The translations under genes and the position numbers were made by a program. 64,000 nucleotides of DNA from NCBI GenBank assembly GCA_965283655.1, contig CBDIPJ010000001.1, positions 114,987 to 178,986 on the forward strand. Direction: 5' to 3'. The notes under the pieces are model-generated. The model was given only the letters and a program-made list of their open reading frames with translations. It was not told the origin of the DNA and did no database searches. Source of the DNA: Limisphaerales bacterium. GTDB lineage: Bacteria; Verrucomicrobiota; Verrucomicrobiia; Limisphaerales; UBA9464. Positions 6,637-63,325 of this stretch are shown here, one piece after another (the first letter of the stretch is position 1; each line of letters starts with the position of its first letter).

Positions 6637-6861
6637 ATGAACACACGCCTCCAGCAACAACAGTCCGCCCAGGCCAGCCACTCCCAGCAGTCGGAAACTC
6701 GCCAGGTGGGATCGTTCGAGAACGCCGAGGACGCCCTCCGCGCCGATCGCAACCAGACCACCGTCCCCAACAGCCTCGGCGATCGCATCGCGGAATCCCT
6801 CGCCAGCGAACCCCAGCCCGCCGCACCCAAGAGTTGGTGGCAACGGCTCTTCGGCAGCTGA
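6637..6861 (+). CDS. small hypothetical protein downstream of the ECF sigma factor
   Basis: 74-aa ORF starting 5 nt after the sigma stop. Gln/Ser-rich with no TM segment. Position suggests co-transcription; function unknown. Confidence 0.35.
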   Translation: MNTRLQQQQSAQASHSQQSETRQVGSFENAEDALRADRNQTTVPNSLGDRIAESLASEPQPAAPKSWWQRLFGS

Positions 6862-6970
6862 CATCAAGCATCCAGCCCGGGCACCCCGCGCACACGAGGG
6901 GAATCATCGCGGAGTGCCCGGTGGATCACAGGCCCGGCCAAGAGGGAAAACCGGGCCCGAAAGCATTACC

Positions 6971-7148
6971 CTAGAAACGGCAGTTCATTGAACCGCAGAT
7001 GCCGCCGATTCCGCAGATGGAGGGGCAGAAATGCCAGCACCCAAGGCTCGTGCAGACGTCACCTTGCGGGTGAAGGGCGCGCCCGATCCAAGCTGCTGAC
7101 TCTCTGCGTCATCTGCGATCATCTGCGGTTCCAACTGCTGCTTTCAGG
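6971..7148 (+). repeat. ~170-nt structured element, copy 1 (candidate ncRNA or MITE)
   Basis: About 97% identical to copy 2. Closing inverted repeats AACCGCAGATG (6991-7001) / CATCTGCGGTT (7120-7130), and CGCAGATG / CATCTGCG nested inside. GNRA hairpin GGCA-GAAA-TGCC (7024-7035). Confidence 0.7.
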
Positions 7149-7154
7149 ATTACC

Positions 7155-7940
7155 TCACCCAGGCCTAGGACGCGGCGGCAACACGGGGCGCGCCACAGGT
7201 GCGGGTGGAGTCGTGGAATGGGTTCCACTGGATGCCACCCCCGCAGGGGACGCGTTTCCTCCCCCACCCCGAGGCGGCGGAGCCGGCGCCGATTCATGCG
7301 CGCTGCTCCATTTCCAATCCCGCGGGCGTCGGCAAAGTCCCGCATTCACTGCCCGGAACTCCACATTCCGGATCCGCCGCATCACCTCCGCCTCATCCTC
7401 GAGCGCCCGCAGATACGGCACCCGCTCCCACAATTCCACCGCACCGCGGTCGAGCGCGAGGTTCACCTGACTTGTCGTGTACGAGCGCCATTCCCGGACC
7501 ACCGCGCCTGCATCGACCCCTTCCGCTGTCGTGAAGATCACCTGCAGGTGGTTGGGCAGCACCGACCACGCCCGCAGCGTATACCGTCTTCCGTGACCCG
7601 CCTGCAGCGCTGATTGCACCAGCCGGGCCACCTGCTCATCCCGCAACCAACAGTCCCCGTGACCCGCGTTCAGTTCAGCTTCGATCCGTTGGGCAATCCG
7701 ACGACGCAGGGCCGCTTCATCCCCGCCGTCGGTCCGGTTGGCTTCTTCCTCCTCCGACCGCAACCGCGTCACCAACTCGGCCGGCATCGCATCCGTCAAC
7801 CGGAACACCGCCCAGTAGGTGGAGACGGGACTGACAGGTGTCGCCGGGTTGCTTCCGGATGCGGGCGCGGGCGGCAGCACGGGCGGGCGTCCAGGCGGAG
7901 GTCGATTGGCGGATCCTTTGGGAGAAGGCGTTGTCTGCAT
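7155..7940 (-). CDS. divergent Y1 (IS200/RAYT-like, COG1943-type) transposase homolog
   Basis: Core pattern YWAVFRLTD..., GRRYTLRAWSVLPNHLQVIF, ELWERVPYLRAL, VNAGLCRRPRDWKWSSA matches REP-associated tyrosine transposases. The HUH position reads H-L-Q. Single gene with no IS ends. Confidence 0.6.
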   Translation of the reverse strand: MQTTPSPKGSANRPPPGRPPVLPPAPASGSNPATPVSPVSTYWAVFRLTDAMPAELVTRLRSEEEEANRTDGGDEAALRRRIAQRIEAELNAGHGDCWLRDEQVARLVQSALQAGHGRRYTLRAWSVLPNHLQVIFTTAEGVDAGAVVREWRSYTTSQVNLALDRGAVELWERVPYLRALEDEAEVMRRIRNVEFRAVNAGLCRRPRDWKWSSAHESAPAPPPRGGGGNASPAGVASSGTHSTTPPAPVARPVLPPRPRPG

Positions 7941-19944: not shown

Positions 19945-20126
19945 GGGGGAGGGAGTTCGAAGTTTTCAGTTTCAAGTTTCAAGCCGGTGGAACGCCGCGT
20001 GGGGGCACGCGGCCTACACCGTTCTGGCATCCGGAAACTTGGAACTCCTCCTGAAGGCCGGGTGCCCTCACCCGGCGAAATTCAGGCAGGCTTCAAACTT
20101 GAAACTTCAAACTTGAAACTCCCATC
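19945..20126. repeat. composite mosaic element filling the purH/pilin stop-to-stop gap
   Basis: Ends GGGAGTTCGAAGTTTTCAGTTTCAAG... and ...CTTCAAACTTGAAACTTCAAACTTGAAACTCCC are inverted heptad modules. REP-B at 19993-20017 (-, GTAGG head) and 20052-20077 (+). Confidence 0.8.
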
Positions 20127-23604: not shown

Positions 23605-26600
23605 ATGAAAACGCTGAAATCCATCCGGGCTGGACTGGCCCCGGGGCTCGCAGGAGCCCTAACCCTGCTGGCGCTGGCCGGCACCAGCACCAATGCTGCG
23701 CAGGTCTCCTACACCAGCACCCTCTCCATCAGGCCGACTGGTTGGACCAACACGGTGTCCCTACCCCAGTTTGATCCGGTCAACGGAACCCTCCTCGGGG
23801 TCACGCTCCGGGTCGACAGCACCTTCCGGAGCGTCTCCCGTGTCGAAAACACCACCCCTGTTCCGGCCCCGCAAACCGTTTCCGGTGCGCTCGGCTCCCT
23901 GGTGACCTTCAACCCGTCGGCCTTGCCCCTGATCTCGGTCGCTCCCGTGGTCAGGTTCACCAACAACCTGGCAGCCTACGACAGCCTCCCGGACTACGGC
24001 GGCAGCTCGGGTGTCTCGAACGCCCGACGCGTCGCCACGGCATCGGCCACGCAACCCCAGCTGCCTCCCTTCATCGATTTCGAAGGCACCGGCAATGTGA
24101 ACCTGACCCTGGCCGCCACGGCGACCGGCTTCTGCATCGGGCCCGCCAACTTCCTCCTGGCCGTCACCCCCGAGATGGGCGCGTCCGTCACGGTCATCTA
24201 TGATTACGAGGAACCGACGACCCCCACCGGCATCGGCGACTTCGTCTGGAATGACTTCAATGGAAACGGCGTTGCTGAACCCGGCGAACCCGGCCTCCCC
24301 GGCGTCACCGTCTCCCTGCTCGACGAGTTTGGCGTTCCCGTGGCCGGCATCTTCCCCACGGTCACCGATGCCAACGGCGCCTACAACTTCTCCGGAATGC
24401 CCGCCGGAAACTACTACGTCGTCATCGAGCCACCCGCCGGCTTCGTCCCCACCTATGACGTCGACGGCGTCGATGCCTCCAACTCCGCCCTGGTCAACAT
24501 CCTCGCCGGACAGTTCCGCGACGATGTCGACTTCGGCCTCGCCCAGCTGACCAGCACAGTCGGCGACCGCGTCTGGAACGACGCCAACGCCAACGGAATC
24601 CAGGACACCGACGAAACCGGCATCGCCGGCGTCACCGTCGACCTGAAGGACGCCACCGACGCGGTCATCGCCTCCACCTCCACGGATGCCAACGGCACCT
24701 ACGGCTTCTCCGGAATCGCTGCAGGCACCTACACCATCGCTGTCAGCGGCCTCCCCTCGGGCTACGTCGCCACCTTCGATGCCGACGGCCTTGGAACCCC
24801 GGCCACCACCTCCCTCTCCCTGAACGCCGGTGAGGTGATCGACACCATCGACTTCGGCTTCCAATCCCAGAACTCCGGTCTCGGTGACCGCGTCTGGCAG
24901 GACCGCAACGGAAACGGCGTCCAGGAATCGGGCGAACCCGGCCTCGCCGGCATCACCGTCGAACTCCGTTCGGCTTCCGACCTTTCCTTGATCGGTTCCG
25001 CCACCACCGACGCCACCGGCACCTACGGGTTCTCCGGCCTGCCTGCCGGCGATTACCTCGTCGTCGTCTCCGCTCCCGCCGGTTACCAACCGACACACGA
25101 TTTCGACGGCACCGGCTCCCCGAGCCAGACGCAGGTCCAACTCGCCAGCGATGAGGTCCGCAACGACGTCGACTTCGGTTACGCCGGCGGCACCCTGGGC
25201 GACCGTGTCTGGTCCGACGCCAATGCCGACGGCATCCAGGATTCCTCCGAATCCGGCATCCCCGGCGCAACGGTCACCCTTTCCACCGGTGCCACCACGA
25301 CCACCGATGCCAACGGTTACTACAGCTTCGGCGACCTTCCCGCTGGAACCTACACGATCAACGTGAGCGTGCCCGCCGGTTGGGTGGCCACCTTCGACAC
25401 CGACGGCATCGCTTCCGCCGGTTCCGCCATCGTGACCCTCGCCGCCGGGCAGACCCTCGACACCGTGGACTTCGGTTACCAGGAGCGCACCGCCAGCGTC
25501 GGCGACCGCGTCTGGCGCGATGACAACGGCGATGGAATCCAGGATGGCGGCGAACCCGGCCTCGAAGCCGTCGTCGTCGAACTCCGCAATGCCGCCGGTG
25601 ACATCCTGATCACCACCGCGACCACCGACGCCAACGGCTTCTACCAATTCTCCGACCTCGCCGCCGGCACCTACACCGTCTGCGCCATCCAGCCCAACCG
25701 CCACGTCCCGACCTTCGATGCCGACGGTTCCGCCGTCGCCAACTGCGCGGTCATCACCCTCGCCACCGGCGAGGCCCGCAATGACGCCGACTTCGGTTAC
25801 CAACCGCTCGGAACCATCGGTAACCTCGTCTGGCTCGACCTCGACGAAAGCGGGACCTTCGAAGCCGGCACCGAACCCGGCCTCGGTGGCGTCACCGTCA
25901 CCGTCTCCGGCACCGGCGGCACGTTCACGACCGTCACCGACGAGAACGGCGCCTACCTCTTCGACAGCCTGCCGCCCGGCACCTACACCGTCAGCGTCAC
26001 GCCTCCTGAAGGCGTCACCGCCGTGTACGACGTCGATGGCATCGCCACCCTCAATCTCGCCACCGTCACCCTCGCCGCCGGCGGCGAAGACCTCACCGTC
26101 GACTTCGGTTACAACGTCGGCGGCAATCTCCTCACCGCCGACATCTCCGGCCGCGTGTGGGATGACCTCGACGCCAACGGCATTCCGAACGGACCGGAAA
26201 CCGGCCTCCCCGGATTGCCCGTCGCGCTCGTCGACATGAACGGCATCGTGGTCGCCAGCCAGTTCACCGATGGCGCCGGATTCTACGCCTTCAACGCGAT
26301 TGCCGCCGGCACCTACCGCATCGCTGTCACCCCCGCCGCTTACTGGGGCCCGACCTTCGACATCGACGGCACCGGCACGCCCAACCAGGCCACCACCTCC
26401 GTCAATCCCGGCCAGGTCCTCAACGGCGTCGACTTCGGTTACCTCTACGCCCCTCCCGCCGGCAGCATCGGCGACCGCGTCTGGAACGACGCCAACGGCA
26501 ACGGAATCCAGGACCCCACGGAAACCGGTCTCGCCGACGTCTTCGTCGAGATCCGCGACGAACAGGGCACGTTCCTGACTTCCGCCACCACCGACGCCTC

Positions 26601-29199
26601 CGGGTACTACACCCTCTCCGACGTCGATGCCGGCGACTACGTCCTCTCGATCGTGCCCCCCGCCTACTACGAGGCGACCGGCGACCTCGACGGCGTCCTC
26701 ACCCCGAACATCGCCCTCGTCACCCTCGCCATCGGCCAGGAACGCACCGACGTCGACTTCGGACTGATCTACAACCCGCCGCCGGCCCTCGTCGGTGACC
26801 GCGTCTGGATCGATGAGAACTCCAACGGCGTCCAGGACCCCGGTGAATCCGGCCTCGCCGGCTTGACCGTCAACCTCCTCGACAACGCGGGCAGCATCGT
26901 TGCCACCGCCACCACCGATGGCGTCGGCGCCTATGCCTTCAGCGGCCTGCAGGCCGGAAGCTACACCGTCGCCGTCGCCTCGCCCCTCTACTACATCCCG
27001 ACGTTCGACTTCGACGGCATCGCCACCACGAACGCCGCCACCCTCACCCTCTCCATCGGTGAGACCAACACGACTGTCGACTTCGGCTTCGTCTACGCCC
27101 CGCCCCTCGGCCACATCGGTGACCGCGTCTGGATCGATGCGAATGCCGACGGCATCCAGGATCTCGCCGAAGCCGGCATGACGAACATCACCGTCACCCT
27201 CCGCGACGGCACCGGCCAGATCAGCGCCACCACCACGACCGACAGCACCGGCTACTACCACTTCAGCGGTCTCGCCGCCGGCAACTACTCCGTCGCCGTC
27301 ACCGTGGCCACCAACGCCCTCCCGACCTTCGACCTCGACGGCATCGCCACGACGAACGTCGCCGCCGTCACCCTCGCCATCGGTGAAGACAAGGACGACG
27401 TCGACTTCGGATTCCAGATCATCCTGCCGCCCGCCCTCGCCAGCATCGGTGACCGCGTCTGGATCGACAACGGCAATGGCCTCTTCGAACCCGGCGAGAA
27501 CGGCCTCACCAACGCGATCGTTGTGCTCCGCAACCTCCAGGGCACGCCCATCGCCACCAACATCGTCGGCGCCAACGGGGCCTACCTGTTCGAAGAACTC
27601 GAACCGGGCACCTACACCGTCACCGTCACGCCGCCCGCAAATTACTTCGCGACCTACGACCTCGACGGCCTCACCACGCCGGACAATACCACCGTCACTG
27701 TCGAGTACGGCGATGACCGTCGCGATGTCGACTTCGCCTACGCCTTCGTCGCTCCCGATCCCATGATCGGCCGCATCGGCGATCGCGTCTGGCTCGACGC
27801 CAACGGAAACGGCATCGCCGAATCGATCGAGACCGGCATCGCCGGGGTCACCGTCCGACTCCTCTCCCCCGCGGGAACGCAGCTCGACGTTGCCACCACC
27901 GACAGCACCGGATTCTACGAATTCGTCAACCTGGCCGGCGGCACCTACCAGGTCGTCGTGACCCCACCCGCCGGATTCTCGCCGACCTCCGACGCTGACG
28001 GCGTCGCCACGGCCAACTCCGCCGTCGTCATCCTCCCGGGTGGAGTCGAGATGCTCGACATCGACTTCGGCTACCTCCCGCCCGCCTTCGCCTGCATCGG
28101 TGACCGGGTGTGGATCGATGCCGACAGCAACGGAGTCCAGAACTCCTCCGAGGTCGGCCTCGCCAACGTCCGCGTCGTCCTCCTGAACTCGACGGGCACG
28201 CCGATCCGCACCAACACGACGTCCTCCACCGGCGCGTATCTCTTCAACAACGTTCCCGCCGGCACCTACACGGTGGTCGTCACGGCACCCGTCACGTTCG
28301 GGCCGACCTGGGACGTCGACGGCATCTCCACGCCGAACCGCAGCACGGTCACCGTCGCCGCCGGCGAAAACCGCCTGAACGTCGACTTCGGCTACGTCGC
28401 CTGCGCCGGCACCGGCCGCATCGGTGACCTCGTCTGGATCGACAGTGACGGAGATGGCACCCGCGACAGCAATGGTTGCCGCGGCACCGAGTCGGGCCTG
28501 CCCTGCGCCACCGTCCGGCTCTTCGATGCCAACGGATTCCTGATCGCAACCCGGCAAACCGACAACAATGGCCGTTACCAGTTCACCGGCCTCTTCGCCG
28601 GCCTCTACTCCGTGACGGTCACCCCGCCCTCCGGCTACACGCCGAGCTATGATCTCGACGGCCTCCTCACGCCCAACACCGCGACGCTCAGCCTCGCCAA
28701 TGGCCAGACCCGCAGCGACGTCGACTTCGGCTACATCCGCTACTGCCCGCGCATCACCACGGGCACCGGCTGCACGCCTGGCTTCTGGCGCAACCAGAAC
28801 GGCCAGTCACTCCTCCGTCCGTACGACTTCGCCGTCCTCACCTCGCTGAAGCTCGTCAATGACAACGGATCCGACCGCGACTTCACCTCGACCCTGAGCT
28901 CGAACAAGTCCGCCTTCGCCAGCTGGCTCCAGTCCAGCTCGGCCGTGAACATGTCCCGCCAGCTCTCGATCCATCTGGCGTGCTTCCAGCTCAACGTCCT
29001 CCACGGCTTCTACCAGCCGGGAACGTCCATCCCGACTCCGGGCATCGGCAGCGGTTCCATGACCGCCTCGAACCTGATCGCCGCGGCCAACGCTGCACTC
29101 ATCGCCGACGGCAACACACCGTCCGGTGACCCCAATCGCGCTTCTCAGGAAGTCCTGAAGAACGCCCTCGACGCCGCCAATCAGGCTGCCCGTCGATGA
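23605..29199 (+). CDS. giant secreted adhesin-like protein: N-terminal anchor-type domain + 14 SdrD-B/Cna-B-like repeats + Cys-containing C-terminal domain
   Basis: Signal peptide MKTLKSIRAGLAPGLAGALTLLALAGTSTNA. 14 units of about 105-115 aa, each starting G[DN][RLF]VW.D.[ND].[ND]G and containing TDANG.Y.F..L.AG.Y. Confidence 0.85.
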   Translation: MKTLKSIRAGLAPGLAGALTLLALAGTSTNAAQVSYTSTLSIRPTGWTNTVSLPQFDPVNGTLLGVTLRVDSTFRSVSRVENTTPVPAPQTVSGALGSLVTFNPSALPLISVAPVVRFTNNLAAYDSLPDYGGSSGVSNARRVATASATQPQLPPFIDFEGTGNVNLTLAATATGFCIGPANFLLAVTPEMGASVTVIYDYEEPTTPTGIGDFVWNDFNGNGVAEPGEPGLPGVTVSLLDEFGVPVAGIFPTVTDANGAYNFSGMPAGNYYVVIEPPAGFVPTYDVDGVDASNSALVNILAGQFRDDVDFGLAQLTSTVGDRVWNDANANGIQDTDETGIAGVTVDLKDATDAVIASTSTDANGTYGFSGIAAGTYTIAVSGLPSGYVATFDADGLGTPATTSLSLNAGEVIDTIDFGFQSQNSGLGDRVWQDRNGNGVQESGEPGLAGITVELRSASDLSLIGSATTDATGTYGFSGLPAGDYLVVVSAPAGYQPTHDFDGTGSPSQTQVQLASDEVRNDVDFGYAGGTLGDRVWSDANADGIQDSSESGIPGATVTLSTGATTTTDANGYYSFGDLPAGTYTINVSVPAGWVATFDTDGIASAGSAIVTLAAGQTLDTVDFGYQERTASVGDRVWRDDNGDGIQDGGEPGLEAVVVELRNAAGDILITTATTDANGFYQFSDLAAGTYTVCAIQPNRHVPTFDADGSAVANCAVITLATGEARNDADFGYQPLGTIGNLVWLDLDESGTFEAGTEPGLGGVTVTVSGTGGTFTTVTDENGAYLFDSLPPGTYTVSVTPPEGVTAVYDVDGIATLNLATVTLAAGGEDLTVDFGYNVGGNLLTADISGRVWDDLDANGIPNGPETGLPGLPVALVDMNGIVVASQFTDGAGFYAFNAIAAGTYRIAVTPAAYWGPTFDIDGTGTPNQATTSVNPGQVLNGVDFGYLYAPPAGSIGDRVWNDANGNGIQDPTETGLADVFVEIRDEQGTFLTSATTDASGYYTLSDVDAGDYVLSIVPPAYYEATGDLDGVLTPNIALVTLAIGQERTDVDFGLIYNPPPALVGDRVWIDENSNGVQDPGESGLAGLTVNLLDNAGSIVATATTDGVGAYAFSGLQAGSYTVAVASPLYYIPTFDFDGIATTNAATLTLSIGETNTTVDFGFVYAPPLGHIGDRVWIDANADGIQDLAEAGMTNITVTLRDGTGQISATTTTDSTGYYHFSGLAAGNYSVAVTVATNALPTFDLDGIATTNVAAVTLAIGEDKDDVDFGFQIILPPALASIGDRVWIDNGNGLFEPGENGLTNAIVVLRNLQGTPIATNIVGANGAYLFEELEPGTYTVTVTPPANYFATYDLDGLTTPDNTTVTVEYGDDRRDVDFAYAFVAPDPMIGRIGDRVWLDANGNGIAESIETGIAGVTVRLLSPAGTQLDVATTDSTGFYEFVNLAGGTYQVVVTPPAGFSPTSDADGVATANSAVVILPGGVEMLDIDFGYLPPAFACIGDRVWIDADSNGVQNSSEVGLANVRVVLLNSTGTPIRTNTTSSTGAYLFNNVPAGTYTVVVTAPVTFGPTWDVDGISTPNRSTVTVAAGENRLNVDFGYVACAGTGRIGDLVWIDSDGDGTRDSNGCRGTESGLPCATVRLFDANGFLIATRQTDNNGRYQFTGLFAGLYSVTVTPPSGYTPSYDLDGLLTPNTATLSLANGQTRSDVDFGYIRYCPRITTGTGCTPGFWRNQNGQSLLRPYDFAVLTSLKLVNDNGSDRDFTSTLSSNKSAFASWLQSSSAVNMSRQLSIHLACFQLNVLHGFYQPGTSIPTPGIGSGSMTASNLIAAANAALIADGNTPSGDPNRASQEVLKNALDAANQAARR

Positions 29200-36331: not shown

Positions 36332-36375
36332 CCCTGGGATCCAGAGGACTGTTCGTTGAGTCCGAGCCACGGATC

Positions 36376-36401
36376 AGTAGGCCGGGTGCCTTCACCCGGC
36401 G
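36376..36401 (+). repeat. REP-B single copy (GTAGG head)
   Basis: AGTAGGCCGGGTGCCTTCACCCGGCG. Confidence 0.7.
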
Positions 36402-36555
36402 TATGCACTAAAGACTGTAGACGAGGTGTGGACTGCCGGTTCATTGCTGCAAATACCGTTACTGTAGGGGGGCGTGTCTTCATGCCGCACGCGAAGCCGC
36501 GACGGCCGCGAAGAAAAGCCGGGCCCGCCCCTTCGTCGCTCGGAACCTTTCGCGT

Positions 36556-36993
36556 GAGCCGGTTTCCACGACGTCGTCGGACGGCGTCACCCACCTCTAC
36601 CGCCGCGACATTCGTTGGGAAGCTGACGGTAGCACTGGTACCGGAAGCGCTGATGGAACCCAGCCCGGACACGATGAGGGCGCAGTCGGTTCCAAGTGTG
36701 GCCGGCCTTCGGCCAACGACCTCGCCCAGGTTGACGTTCACCGTCAGATTCGTCGCGAGGCTCCCCGTCCGTTCGAATCGGATGTGGCCTTCCTGAACCC
36801 CACCCTCCCGGCGATCCTGCGCCACGGAGATGACCGGACGGACCGAGACCGCTGTGCCGATCGGAAGTGTTCCCCGGGCGTAGGCCACCCGATACTCCGA
36901 AAACTGACCGGAGGCCTGATTGGTTGCCGCAGGAGCGTGGGCGGTGGCGTCAGGGGGGATGGGCGTTGGGTTCGCATAACCGGCTATAACTCC
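36556..36993 (-). pseudogene. possible start-less remnant of a Calx-beta-like adhesin gene
   Basis: The frame reads ...VISVAQDRREGGVQEGHIRFERTGSLATNLTVNVNLGE...ATLGTDC..., like the Calx-beta unit of the 56032-58056 protein. No ATG; bounded by a stop upstream and repeats on both sides. Confidence 0.2.
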
Positions 36994-37129
36994 TCCCCAT
37001 GAACTTCAGATGACCCAACAAATCAACGACTCATTGGCGAATCAGGGAGCAATGGGGTGAAACGGCCAACAGGGCTGCGGTTCTGGAAAGGGCCGAACAA
37101 AGCGTGTCCGGCTGCGCTTTCCGTTCATC

Positions 37130-37298
37130 CTAGAAGCGGGAGTTCATTTAACCGCAGATGCCGCAGATGGAGGGGCAGAAATGCCAGCACCCAAGGCTCG
37201 TGCAGACGTCACCTTGCGGGTGAAGGGCACGCCCGATCCAAGCTACTGACTCTCTGCGTCATCTGCGATCATCTGCGGTTCCAACTGCTGCTTTCAGG
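37130..37298 (+). repeat. ~170-nt structured element, copy 2
   Basis: Near-identical to 6971-7148 apart from a 9-nt deletion in the 5' arm and 2 substitutions. Confidence 0.7.
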
Positions 37299-37337
37299 TT
37301 CATGGAAGGAGCAAAGTGCTTTCCCCGCCCAGCGGAC

Positions 37338-39140
37338 CTACTTCTCGATCACGAACTGGTCCCGGAGAACACCGTCGATGTCGAACGCGCGGTAGTTCAT
37401 CCGGGGCCCGCTGATCTGGATGTCGAGCACCTGATAGGTCGCCACGTTTGTCATCCCCACCTGCGTATAGTCGTGCTTCGCCTGCGGATAGAACTTCGTT
37501 CCCGACGTGGCCACGACATATACCGTTCCCTTGGCCGGCGTTTCCGCCCGTTGGCCGCCCTTCATCGGAAACGTCCGCAGGTACGCGTGGTCGTGTCCCT
37601 GCAGCACCAGGTCGACGTGGTATTGGTCGAACAGCGGTGTCCAATGCTGCACCACCGACTCGTTCTGCCGGCCTTCCGCGGACGAGTACGCCGGGTGGTG
37701 ATACGCCACGAACTTCCACGTCGCCTTCGTCGTCGACAACTCCTGCGCCAGCCAGTTCGTCTGCAACGACGGCGCGAGGTTCGAGTCCAGGATGATGAAC
37801 TGCGCGTCCGAATAGCGGAAGCTGTAGGCCCGCTCCGGCGGGATCTCCTTCGGCCCGTTCCGCATCAGCGCGAACTGTTGCAGGTACATCTTCGGCTCGC
37901 CCCCCTGGTACTCATGATTGCCCAGCACGGGCACCAGCGTCCGGCGATCGAAGATCGTCCGCGCATTGTGGAAGAAGCTGTCCCAATCGTCCCGCTGCGC
38001 CCCCCGGTTCACGAGGTCCCCCGCCATCAGGTAGAAGGCCGCGTCCGGACGGTTCCGAAATGCGGTCTGAACGAGTGATCCCCACCGGTCGAGCCCGTTC
38101 TGGGCATCGCCCATATAAATGAAGGAGAAGGGCACGTTGCCCGCCGGGGCCGTGATGAACTCCTGGTACTCCAGCCAACCATCCCGGCTGCCATCGCCCA
38201 CGGAGTAGAGATACCGCGTCCCCGGCTCGAGGCCGGTCAACGCCACCGTGTGCCGGTTCACCACCGGATCATTCAGCAACCGCTCGTCCTTCAACACCTC
38301 CGTCACCGCCTTCACCCGCTGCGGACGCCGGTCCCGCGGGGAATTCATGTCCACCGCACGCCCGAATTGCACATAACCGCTCCGCACCTTCGGACCCGTC
38401 CGCCACTGGATCGTCTGCGTCGTCTGCGGATCCCCGCTCCACGTCAGGACCACATGCTCCGGACGATCCTTCGACCGATGATCGGTCCATCGGAAGATCC
38501 CCAGCAACCGGCCATCCTCCCGTCGGTCCCGGAGCGTCCGCACGATCCGGGCACCCATGAACTCTGGAGGAAGGTTTGTCAGCGTCACATCCATGTCCGC
38601 ATACGGTGCGATCCCGTTGGTGAACTCCCCCACCCGCAAGGTCGCGGGGTATAACTCGTCGATTTCCAACCTCTGTCCCGCGACCGCCGGCTGCGCCAGC
38701 ACCAGATAATGTTCACCGCCCCCCGCCACCGAGTTCACGCCCAGACCCACCTCTCCCGCCGGAAACTCCTTCTGCCACGCCTCAAAGCGGACACTGCCCC
38801 GCGTCACCGCGTTCGTCCGCGCCACGAAGCCCCGTTCGGAAAGCCAATAGGGATCATTGGTGTTCCGCGCATCCTTCAGCACCGTCACCACCGCGGGAAC
38901 GCTCAGCCGGAACAGCACATGTTCACTCCCGAGGATCTCACGCTCCCGCGCGGTGATCAGCCCCAGCGCCTCCGCCACCTTCATCTGCTTCAGCTCATTG
39001 GTGGTCTTCGTCCGCTCAAACCGGTCCAGGATCCCGGCCACCGTGTCATGGATCGACGCATGCGTCCCCACGTGCGCCTGCGACGCCACTGATGCCACCC
39101 ACAACCCCAAAGCCACAACCACCCAACGCCACCTGTGCAT
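37338..39140 (-). CDS. secreted metallophosphoesterase (purple-acid-phosphatase-like)
   Basis: Signal peptide (MHRWRWVVVALGLWVASVASQA). FN3-like segment (VVLTWSGDPQTTQTIQWRT). Phosphoesterase motifs GDAQNG, MAGDLVNRG, GNHEY, QGHDHAY. Confidence 0.8.
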   Translation of the reverse strand: MHRWRWVVVALGLWVASVASQAHVGTHASIHDTVAGILDRFERTKTTNELKQMKVAEALGLITAREREILGSEHVLFRLSVPAVVTVLKDARNTNDPYWLSERGFVARTNAVTRGSVRFEAWQKEFPAGEVGLGVNSVAGGGEHYLVLAQPAVAGQRLEIDELYPATLRVGEFTNGIAPYADMDVTLTNLPPEFMGARIVRTLRDRREDGRLLGIFRWTDHRSKDRPEHVVLTWSGDPQTTQTIQWRTGPKVRSGYVQFGRAVDMNSPRDRRPQRVKAVTEVLKDERLLNDPVVNRHTVALTGLEPGTRYLYSVGDGSRDGWLEYQEFITAPAGNVPFSFIYMGDAQNGLDRWGSLVQTAFRNRPDAAFYLMAGDLVNRGAQRDDWDSFFHNARTIFDRRTLVPVLGNHEYQGGEPKMYLQQFALMRNGPKEIPPERAYSFRYSDAQFIILDSNLAPSLQTNWLAQELSTTKATWKFVAYHHPAYSSAEGRQNESVVQHWTPLFDQYHVDLVLQGHDHAYLRTFPMKGGQRAETPAKGTVYVVATSGTKFYPQAKHDYTQVGMTNVATYQVLDIQISGPRMNYRAFDIDGVLRDQFVIEK

Positions 39141-39194
39141 CCCCCATCCTGTACCGACCCCAAATCCCAAGGACATCCCCAATCTGAGTTCCCT

Positions 39195-43699: not shown

Positions 43700-43815
43700 C
43701 CTCGGAGCCGTGGCTCCAGGTGCGGAGCACCGGCAGATGATAGCCCACAGCGTCAGCTGTGGGTTTGGCTCCTAAACGGCTACAAGCCCCGGAGGGGCGA
43801 CAGATCCGGGGCTGC
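43700..43815. repeat. hairpin-dense GC-rich unit
   Basis: GGAGCC-gt-GGCTCC (43704-43717), CCCACAGC-GTCA-GCTGTGGG (43744-43763), AGCCCCGGA-11 nt-TCCGGGGCT (43785-43813). Confidence 0.5.
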
Positions 43816-62841: not shown

Positions 62842-62851
62842 GCCTGGATTC

Positions 62852-63010
62852 GGCAATTCATTCATCCGCAGATGACGCCGATGGCGCCGATGGAAGGGCA
62901 GAGATGCGAGCACCTGACACCGGTGAACAAATCACTTTGCAGGAGCACGGCCCGTCCGATCCAAGCTTCTAATTATCTGCGTCATGTGCGGACGCAACCG
63001 CCGCTTTCAG
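62852..63010 (+). repeat. ~170-nt structured element, copy 3 (diverged)
   Basis: Shares TTCATT, CCGCAGATG, GATGGARGGGCAGARATGCSAGCACC, GCCCGWCCGATCCAAGCT, TCTGCGTCAT, GCTTTCAG. Closing stem CCGCAGATGACGC/GCGTCATGTGCGG. Hairpin GCA-GAGA-TGC (62898-62907). Confidence 0.6.
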
Positions 63011-63022
63011 ACTGAACGCACG

Positions 63023-63325
63023 TCAGAACTTCGCCGGACGCAGCACGCGGATCTCCGTCTCGTACGCCACCATCGCGAACTTGGGGAACAGTTCACCCGA
63101 CAACCGTCGCAGAAAATTCTCTGCACCCGCAGGCGGGAGGATTGCCTCGACCTGGATGTTGGCGAACTCCGGGATGTCCCCCGTCCGCATACCCCACGAT
63201 CCGGAGCCCTCCACCTCCCACAGCGTCCATCCGTGGCCGCCGACCTCCGCCAGCAGTCGCAGCACCGGCTCACGCGCCAGCGCTTCACAGATCACCGTTA
63301 CCCGCTTCATCGGATGCGTATTCAT
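63023..63325 (-). CDS. sbtB: P-II-like signalling protein (SbtB-like)
   Basis: 100-aa ORF (MKRVTVICEALAREPVLRLLAEVGGHGWTLWEVEGSG...) with its start overlapping the upstream permease stop (ATGA). Typical SbtA-SbtB arrangement. Confidence 0.6.
   Translation of the reverse strand: MNTHPMKRVTVICEALAREPVLRLLAEVGGHGWTLWEVEGSGSWGMRTGDIPEFANIQVEAILPPAGAENFLRRLSGELFPKFAMVAYETEIRVLRPAKF

Follow-up and report, generated by a model that had tools for sequence, protein, structure and literature searches.

Three repeats of about 170 nt lie in the 64,000-nucleotide stretch of Limisphaerales DNA analysed here (the window), and the question they raise is whether they are genes for a structured RNA or copies of a mobile element. 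Both had been offered as alternatives in an earlier note on this DNA, drawn up from the letters alone. The mobile element is the half that stands, on the evidence of terminal inverted repeats (TIRs), 5-bp target-site duplications (TSDs), dispersed copies and empty sites; the RNA is the half that is not supported. The repeats are almost certainly copies of a non-coding MITE in a Limisphaerales-type verrucomicrobial genome, and such an element is an ordinary, well-known kind of mobile DNA. The window has a G+C content of 65%, and the best matches of its proteins are to MAGs of the Verrucomicrobiota/Limisphaerales. The three plus-strand copies are present as described before, and their distances from the stop codons of the facing minus-strand genes, listed below, agree with the 6-40 nt first estimated. 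The copies, their parts and the facing genes are:

6965-6969, no strand: left TSD of copy 1, ATTAC, same as 7149-7153
6970-7148, plus strand: MITE copy 1, the focal element, 179 nt, defined by the 19-copy alignment and the empty sites
6970-7020, plus strand: left TIR of copy 1, terminus CCTAGAAACGGCAGTT and then 9-bp units; pairs with 7100-7148 (helices 1-3)
6994-7020, plus strand: the three 9-bp units of the left TIR of copy 1, CGCAGATGC, CGCCGATTC and CGCAGATGG
7021-7099, plus strand: non-coding interior of copy 1, containing the conserved block CCGATCCAAGCT and, at 7024-7035, the hairpin GGCAGAAATGCC
7100-7148, plus strand: right TIR of copy 1, three inverted 9-bp units at 7103-7129 and then terminus AACTGCTGCTTTCAGG
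7149-7153, no strand: right TSD of copy 1, ATTAC, same as 6965-6969
7155-7940, minus strand: RAYT-like gene facing copy 1, which ends 6 nt before its stop codon
37124-37128 and 37299-37303: TSD of copy 2, TTCAT
37129-37298, plus strand: MITE copy 2, 170 nt, left TIR one 9-bp unit short
37338-39182, minus strand: purple-acid-phosphatase-type metallophosphoesterase gene facing copy 2, which ends 39 nt before its stop codon
62838-62842 and 63012-63016: TSD of copy 3, CTGAG and CTGAA, the left one overlapping the TGA stop of an AIM24-family gene
62843-63011, plus strand: MITE copy 3, of a diverged subfamily, 169 nt
Ending at 63023, minus strand: P-II/SbtB-like gene facing copy 3, which ends 11 nt before its stop codon

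The ends of the copies were set from an alignment of 19 complete copies (3 from the window, 15 from the Limisphaerales chromosome OZ260084.1 and 1 from a second MAG), which places the element between CCTAGAAT... on the left and ...CTTTCAGG on the right. Copies 1 and 2, previously put at about 97% identity, match at 165 positions and differ at 5 (97.1%), with a single 9-nt indel. Copy 3 is 76.9% identical to copy 1. It had been recognised as a diverged copy at 62852-63010, with a 5' boundary that proves to be about 9 nt too short.

The TIRs are imperfect and extend over about 50 nt. In each, a 16-nt terminus, CCTAGAAnCGGCAGTT or CCTGAAAGCrGCAGTT, is followed by two or three units of the form CGCAGATnn; the termini measure 16-18 bp and begin 5'-CCT(A/G)(G/A)AA. 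When the left end is compared with the reverse complement of the right end, the two align over about 49 nt, with CCTAGAATCGGCAGTTCATTCATCCGCAGATGGCGCCGATTGCGCAGAT lying over CCTGAAAGCGGCAGT, a three-position gap and TGGATCCGCAGATGGCGCAGATGACGCAGAT. The tandem motifs CCGCAGATG and CATCTGCGG, first interpreted as nested closing stems, do pair with each other, and they are these long TIRs. Helices 1-3 are paired at 94-98% in 17 copies. The number of units changes in steps of 9 bp: copy 2 has one fewer on the left, and copy 3 and the copy at locus L007 have one fewer on the right. Between the TIRs lies an interior of about 80 nt that contains small hairpins. The motif CCGCAGATG occurs seven times in the window, every time within the copies (0.96 expected), and the interior block CCGATCCAAGCT occurs three times (0.49 expected). 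The open reading frames that cross the copies, two of which (6988-7470 and 37057-37395) had already been called spurious, are indeed so: they continue into the flanks, differ from copy to copy and have no Pfam match.

The flanks of the copies carry the signature of insertion. Perfect 5-bp duplications border 16 of the 19 complete copies; two more copies have one mismatch and one has two. At every non-zero offset between -4 and +4, flank identity was found in 0 of the 19 copies, and when flank partners were permuted the mean number of perfect pairs was 2.0 and the maximum 9, against the 16 of 19 observed. Copy 1 is flanked by ATTAC/ATTAC, copy 2 by TTCAT/TTCAT and copy 3 by CTGAG/CTGAA. As a consensus, the target reads nT(C/G)An. 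The A at position 4 is invariant, and so is the T at position 2, save for one mismatched flank of locus L008 (TCCAA/TTCAA). A 3-bp TNA duplication of the IS5/Harbinger type was ruled out, as positions 1 and 5 are duplicated too in 16 of the 19 copies.

Precise empty sites, with the 5-mer present once, were found for copies 1 and 3 in related metagenome contigs, which match the window at 91-96% nucleotide identity in their flanks. For copy 3, the JGI contig L087 (AIM24-family protein 97% identical) reads ...GGCGGCGATGA-CTGAA-CGAACGTCAGAACTTCGCC, that is, GATGA-CTGAA and then the sequence written CGAACGTCAGAAC / CGAACGTCAG, where the window has ...GATGA-CTGAG-[169 nt]-CTGAA-CGCACGTCAGAACTTCGCC. 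The same site is likewise empty in a second relative, L088. For copy 1, six contigs (L092, L093, L094, L095, L096 and L097) read ...CCCGAAAGC-ATCAC-C(C)TCA..., with GAAAGC before ATCAC and the element absent; all six keep the neighbourhood of sigma-factor gene, 74-aa ORF and RAYT-like gene. Empty sites and TSDs together mean that the copies arise by insertion. A clear TIR and TSD structure is what the earlier note had named as speaking against an RNA gene, and it is the structure that was found. As the insertions are polymorphic between relatives of about 92-96% nucleotide identity, they offer a handy marker of recent genome change in Limisphaerales.

A clean empty site was not found for copy 2, the nearest relative, L111, being without the entire 36334-37334 segment. 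This segment of about 1 kb, missing from L111 at 93% nucleotide identity, comprises copy 2, a REP-like hairpin at 36377 and, besides the MITE copy, about 800 nt. In L111 the stop codons of the Fe-ADH and phosphoesterase genes stand 1 nt apart.

The element is not confined to the window. One genome per species was scanned with the pattern GATCCAAGCT-N9-CTGCGTCAT, taken from a block conserved in all three copies. A single Limisphaerales chromosome of 7.9 Mb (OZ260084.1) accounts for 17 of the copies detected, and a second verrucomicrobial MAG for 4. Eight further matches, with different spacing and unrelated flanks, were taken as chance. Copies in OZ260084.1 lie on both strands; hence, the uniform plus-strand orientation remarked upon in the window is an accident of a small sample. 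An orthologous insertion was considered for loci L002 and L004, where the flanking genes are 74% identical. Judged by the coordinates, the orientation of the element relative to the gene is opposite in the two, so they look like independent events.

A second family of MITEs, about 178 bp long, has the same 18-nt terminus, CCTGAAAGCGGCAGTTGG, and 9-bp units of its own, CACnGATTT. It was found in OZ260084.1 and, among metagenomes, in about a dozen JGI/ENA contigs (L017:3940-4117, L005:5803-5982, L026:248-611, L057, L061, L072, L083 and others), with 5-bp TSDs such as ATCAC, GTGAA, CTAAA and TTCAC. The two families are sometimes nested one in the other, giving composites of about 360 bp, for example at L024:7495-7854. 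In a 92%-identical relative (L089:3299-3544, L090 and L091), the same convergent gap between the AIM24 and P-II genes is occupied by a different insert, about 240 nt long, that bears inverted GCGGAGAAG-type repeats, and a nested GCGGAGA-repeat element at L026:400-540 is similar to it. The L089-type insert is probably a third MITE type.

With these properties the element resembles known bacterial MITEs (Correia/CREE of Neisseria, ERIC/IRU, RUP and Nezha): it is small, non-coding, bounded by TIRs and flanked by TSDs, with many dispersed intergenic copies that are polymorphic between relatives and could fold into a long hairpin as DNA or RNA. It differs from them in its own sequence, in its host (Limisphaerales, Verrucomicrobiota) and in an unusually long TIR of about 50 bp with tandem 9-bp subterminal units. 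In contrast to the TA target of Correia, its target is 5 bp long, nTSAn. For annotation, the repeats should be masked as mobile DNA and not called as ORFs or RNA genes.

Which transposase moves the element is less clear-cut. The element would be a non-autonomous DNA transposon whose transposase is supplied in trans. This enzyme would bind the termini, and probably the 9-bp subterminal units too, cut the target with a 5-bp stagger and insert the element there. Such transposition would be of the DDE type, either cut-and-paste or copy-out/paste-in, and the enzyme would most likely belong to the IS1380 family, the bacterial relatives of piggyBac. Judging from the terminal sequences, mobilisation by an IS1380-type transposase is somewhat favoured.

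Ends starting 5'-CC combined with a duplication of 4-5 bp are the IS1380 signature in the ISfinder tables. The MITE ends read CCTAGAAT... and CCTGAAAG..., those of ISEcp1 CCTAGATT and CCTAAATT, and that of IS1678 CCTGAATA. Of the two hexamers of the MITE, CCTAGA opens ISEcp1 and CCTGAA opens IS1678, with only these 6 bases in common; against ISEcp1, the match is limited to the first 6 bases and a TC at positions 8-9. As read from an annotated plasmid (L086), ISEcp1 is TCATA|CCTAGATTCTACGT...ACGTGGAATTTAGG, with ends CCTAGA... and CCTAAA..., and its 5-bp duplication has been given as TATGA (PMC2887853). IS1678, read in the same way from another annotated plasmid entry (L110), is GATAG|CCTGAATAATTCAT...ATGAATTATTCAGG|GATAG, with a direct 5-bp duplication. 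The MITE shares with these two IS1380 members the CCTAGA or CCTGAA start and the 5-bp duplication; unlike them, it has no transposase gene, and whereas their IRs of about 14-22 bp are without 9-bp repeat arrays, the element has such arrays.

The eukaryotic transposon piggyBac has been paired with IS1380-like elements (PMC5718144), and its end reads TTAA|CCCTAGAAAGATA (PMC3078864). The terminus of piggyBac and its derived MITEs, CCCTAGAAAG, resembles that of copy 1, CCTAGAAAC. Both targets, TTAA and nTSAn, are short, palindromic and bounded by T and A; however, piggyBac uses an exact 4-bp TTAA, and the duplication here is 5 bp with a variable centre. At the level of terminal and target sequences, this resemblance may be taken as a lead only.

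No IS1380-like ORF was detected by tblastn in the roughly 670 kb of collected loci with four transposases as queries (ISEcp1, IS1678, ISKpn23-like and L. plantarum IS1380). The sole weak match, in L025, lies inside a 1392-aa helicase-like ORF and was taken as chance. In the same 670 kb, matching termini 1-3 kb apart were absent, and inverted termini 1-5 kb apart had only chance or other-MITE partners (L036, L064). An all-against-all blastn of the collected loci gave no IS-sized repeats. A metagenome scan with the terminal 18-mer returned 56 loci with no IS and no copy of the first family; they comprise second-family copies, a few further short elements that share the terminus (L033, L040, L050) and chance matches. 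All 10 matches of a 16-mer scan of viral contigs were chance, and blastn of the element consensus against plasmids gave no match.

These searches bear on the main alternative, that the MITE is moved by a transposase outside IS1380, for example of the IS701/ISAba11 group, ISH3, IS1634, Tn3-derived miniatures or an undescribed family. This has an appreciable chance of being correct, though we do not favour it. The cognate transposase was not found in the loci and metagenome matches searched, the match to IS1380 ends covers only 6 bases, and arrays of 9-bp subterminal repeats are not known as a feature of IS1380 elements, all of which count in its favour. On the other side, the 5'-CC ends and 5-bp duplication fit the IS1380 signature, and CCTAGA and CCTGAA are the actual starts of ISEcp1 and IS1678. 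For Tn3 in particular, the ends of the family start GGGG. Tn3-derived elements (TIMEs) would fit by TSD length, but the MITE ends begin CCT. Tn3-family IRs are 38 bp long (PMC2887853).

If mobilisation by IS1380 is nevertheless assumed, a broader proposal can be made, possible but rather doubtful. It would comprise an undescribed Limisphaerales MITE superfamily of at least three families with the CCTGAAAGCGGCAGTTGG terminus, moved by an IS1380/piggyBac-type transposase that reads 9-bp arrays (CGCAGATnn, CACnGATTT, CACAGAGGn) and uses a palindromic nT(C/G)An target, the five-base counterpart of the piggyBac TTAA; copies in convergent gaps might in addition act as hairpins at mRNA 3' ends. The candidate IS1380/piggyBac affinity, in combination with the 9-bp subterminal repeat arrays, is the one mildly interesting feature of the element. 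Should the link be true, the element would be a compact natural substrate for studying end recognition and target choice by bacterial relatives of piggyBac, with a defined terminus, 9-bp repeat arrays and an nTSAn target.

The position of the copies relative to genes is a further point. With crude ORF calling, about 11 of the 19 copies lie between convergent genes and, after a GC3 filter, none of the 19 lies inside a long high-GC3 ORF. An ORF ends within 0-5 nt of several copies. The target core T(C/G)A is itself the TGA stop codon or its complement, and placement in convergent gaps can be attributed to target preference together with selection against harmful insertions. In mechanistic terms, the placement would reflect an AT-richer target containing TCA or TGA in a genome of 65% GC, selection against insertions in promoters and genes would add to it, and an RNA hairpin in read-through transcripts would be a by-product.

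A second alternative gives this hairpin a role: the MITE would have been co-opted, its hairpin of about 50 bp serving in the 3' UTRs of convergent genes as a putative exonuclease barrier, RNase III site or read-through attenuator. RNA-level roles at 3' ends have been proposed for Correia, ERIC and REP elements. Here, convergent gene ends host most copies, often 0-40 nt from a stop codon, and the transcript of either strand would make a very stable hairpin. However, the placement is equally well explained by a preference for 5-mers containing TCA or TGA and by purifying selection, close relatives thrive without the insertions, and no U-run follows the stem. Co-option is hence considered unlikely, even if a secondary RNA-level effect of the putative 3' hairpin is possible.

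That the element is instead a gene for a plus-strand structured ncRNA, its helices and GNRA-capped hairpin kept by selection, is highly improbable. The element is intergenic and its fold is long and stable, at -81.7 kcal/mol (z = -4.2 for the plus strand against shuffles); yet the minus strand folds slightly better (z = -4.9), and a fold better than shuffles on both strands is expected of any long inverted repeat. The hairpin GGCA-GAAA-TGCC, at 7024-7035 in copy 1, is present as described in copies 1 and 2 and imperfect in copy 3 (GGCAGAGATGCG). Elsewhere its loop is not conserved: many copies have GATA, AATA or GAGA instead, and L001, L011 and copy 3 do not keep the 4-bp stem intact. The suggestion that a GNRA loop marks a plus-strand RNA finds no support here, the minus strand folding no worse.

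The checks that had been proposed for an RNA included an Rfam scan and covariation among further homologues. Rfam gave no match on the element, either at the gathering score over the whole window or at E<=1 over 6900-7220. In an alignment of 17 copies, the RNAalifold covariation term was +2.0 kcal/mol, and one of 56 pairs was compensatory, located in the TIR. The covariation score of 0.055 equals the shuffled mean of 0.055 and was reached by 238 of 500 shuffles, a comparison of limited power, given identities above 90% among most copies. Scans around copies 1 and 2 detected no promoter-like or terminator-like sites. The TSDs and empty sites, by which copies arise through insertion, are contrary to an RNA gene. 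The pattern among the copies is that of recent mobile-element copies and not of a structure held by selection. The sole Rfam match in the window is an Acido-Lenti-1 RNA (RF01687) at 43718-43763 on the minus strand, which scores 48.3 bits (E=7.5e-8), above the gathering score of 37.

The last alternative, that the element is a REP/REPIN- or TIR-type repeat moved by the adjacent RAYT-like tyrosine (HUH) transposase (a REPtron or TIRtron), can be virtually discounted. HUH/Y1 (tyrosine) transposition makes no target duplication, and the 5-bp TSDs in 16 of the 19 copies conflict with it. In its support, copy 1 abuts a gene (7155-7940) that matches NCBIfam REP_Tyr_transpos with E=1e-14, albeit at 54.5 bits, under the cutoff of 80, and distant homologues of which carry Pfam Y1_Tnp; RAYT-like genes with REPs or long TIR families on their flanks have been described (PMC3733652). 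The element resembles REP/REPIN sequences in being an intergenic palindromic repeat, such repeats often following genes, and in having this RAYT-like gene beside copy 1. However, it lies on only one side of the gene, and two of the three window copies are far from any RAYT-like gene. REPs are GTAG-tagged palindromes of 20-40 nt without TSD, whereas the element, with its 5-bp TSDs, has no such palindrome, is 170 nt long and starts CCTAGA. A separate REP-like palindrome in the window is also a better candidate partner for the gene.

The RAYT-like gene is conserved at a single locus in relatives (89-99% protein identity), and in the six contigs with an empty copy 1 site its orthologues stand without the element. 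The link to this gene hinted at in the earlier note is not borne out by this comparison, and the adjacency is incidental. By eye, the protein has NHLQ in place of the HUH motif and RRIRN at the expected catalytic-Tyr motif. From its sequence, the gene may be a domesticated or inactive copy. Directly downstream of its 3' end, at 6860-6965, are two conserved hairpins, CCGGGCACCCCGCG...CGCGGAGTGCCCGG and GGCCCGG...CCGGGCC, which are present in relatives too.

The REP-like palindrome, G(T/A)AGGCCGGGTGCCCYCACCCGGC, is 24 nt long and has 14 matches in the window with up to 3 mismatches, against 0 expected (at 19994, 20053, 23122, 33983, 34895, 34933, 35004, 36377, 39196, 39500, 47185, 47515, 50815 and 58201). 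The family is GTAG/GAAG-tagged, and its variants GCCGCGTG...CACGCGGC preserve the stem. It occurs also in loci of OZ260084.1 (L015, L017 and L026) and in L112, and the RAYT-like gene could plausibly be its partner. Repeats of another kind were seen at 26197-28444, where internal tandem-like units of about 330 nt are 71-73% identical; they are probably repeated domains in one large gene.
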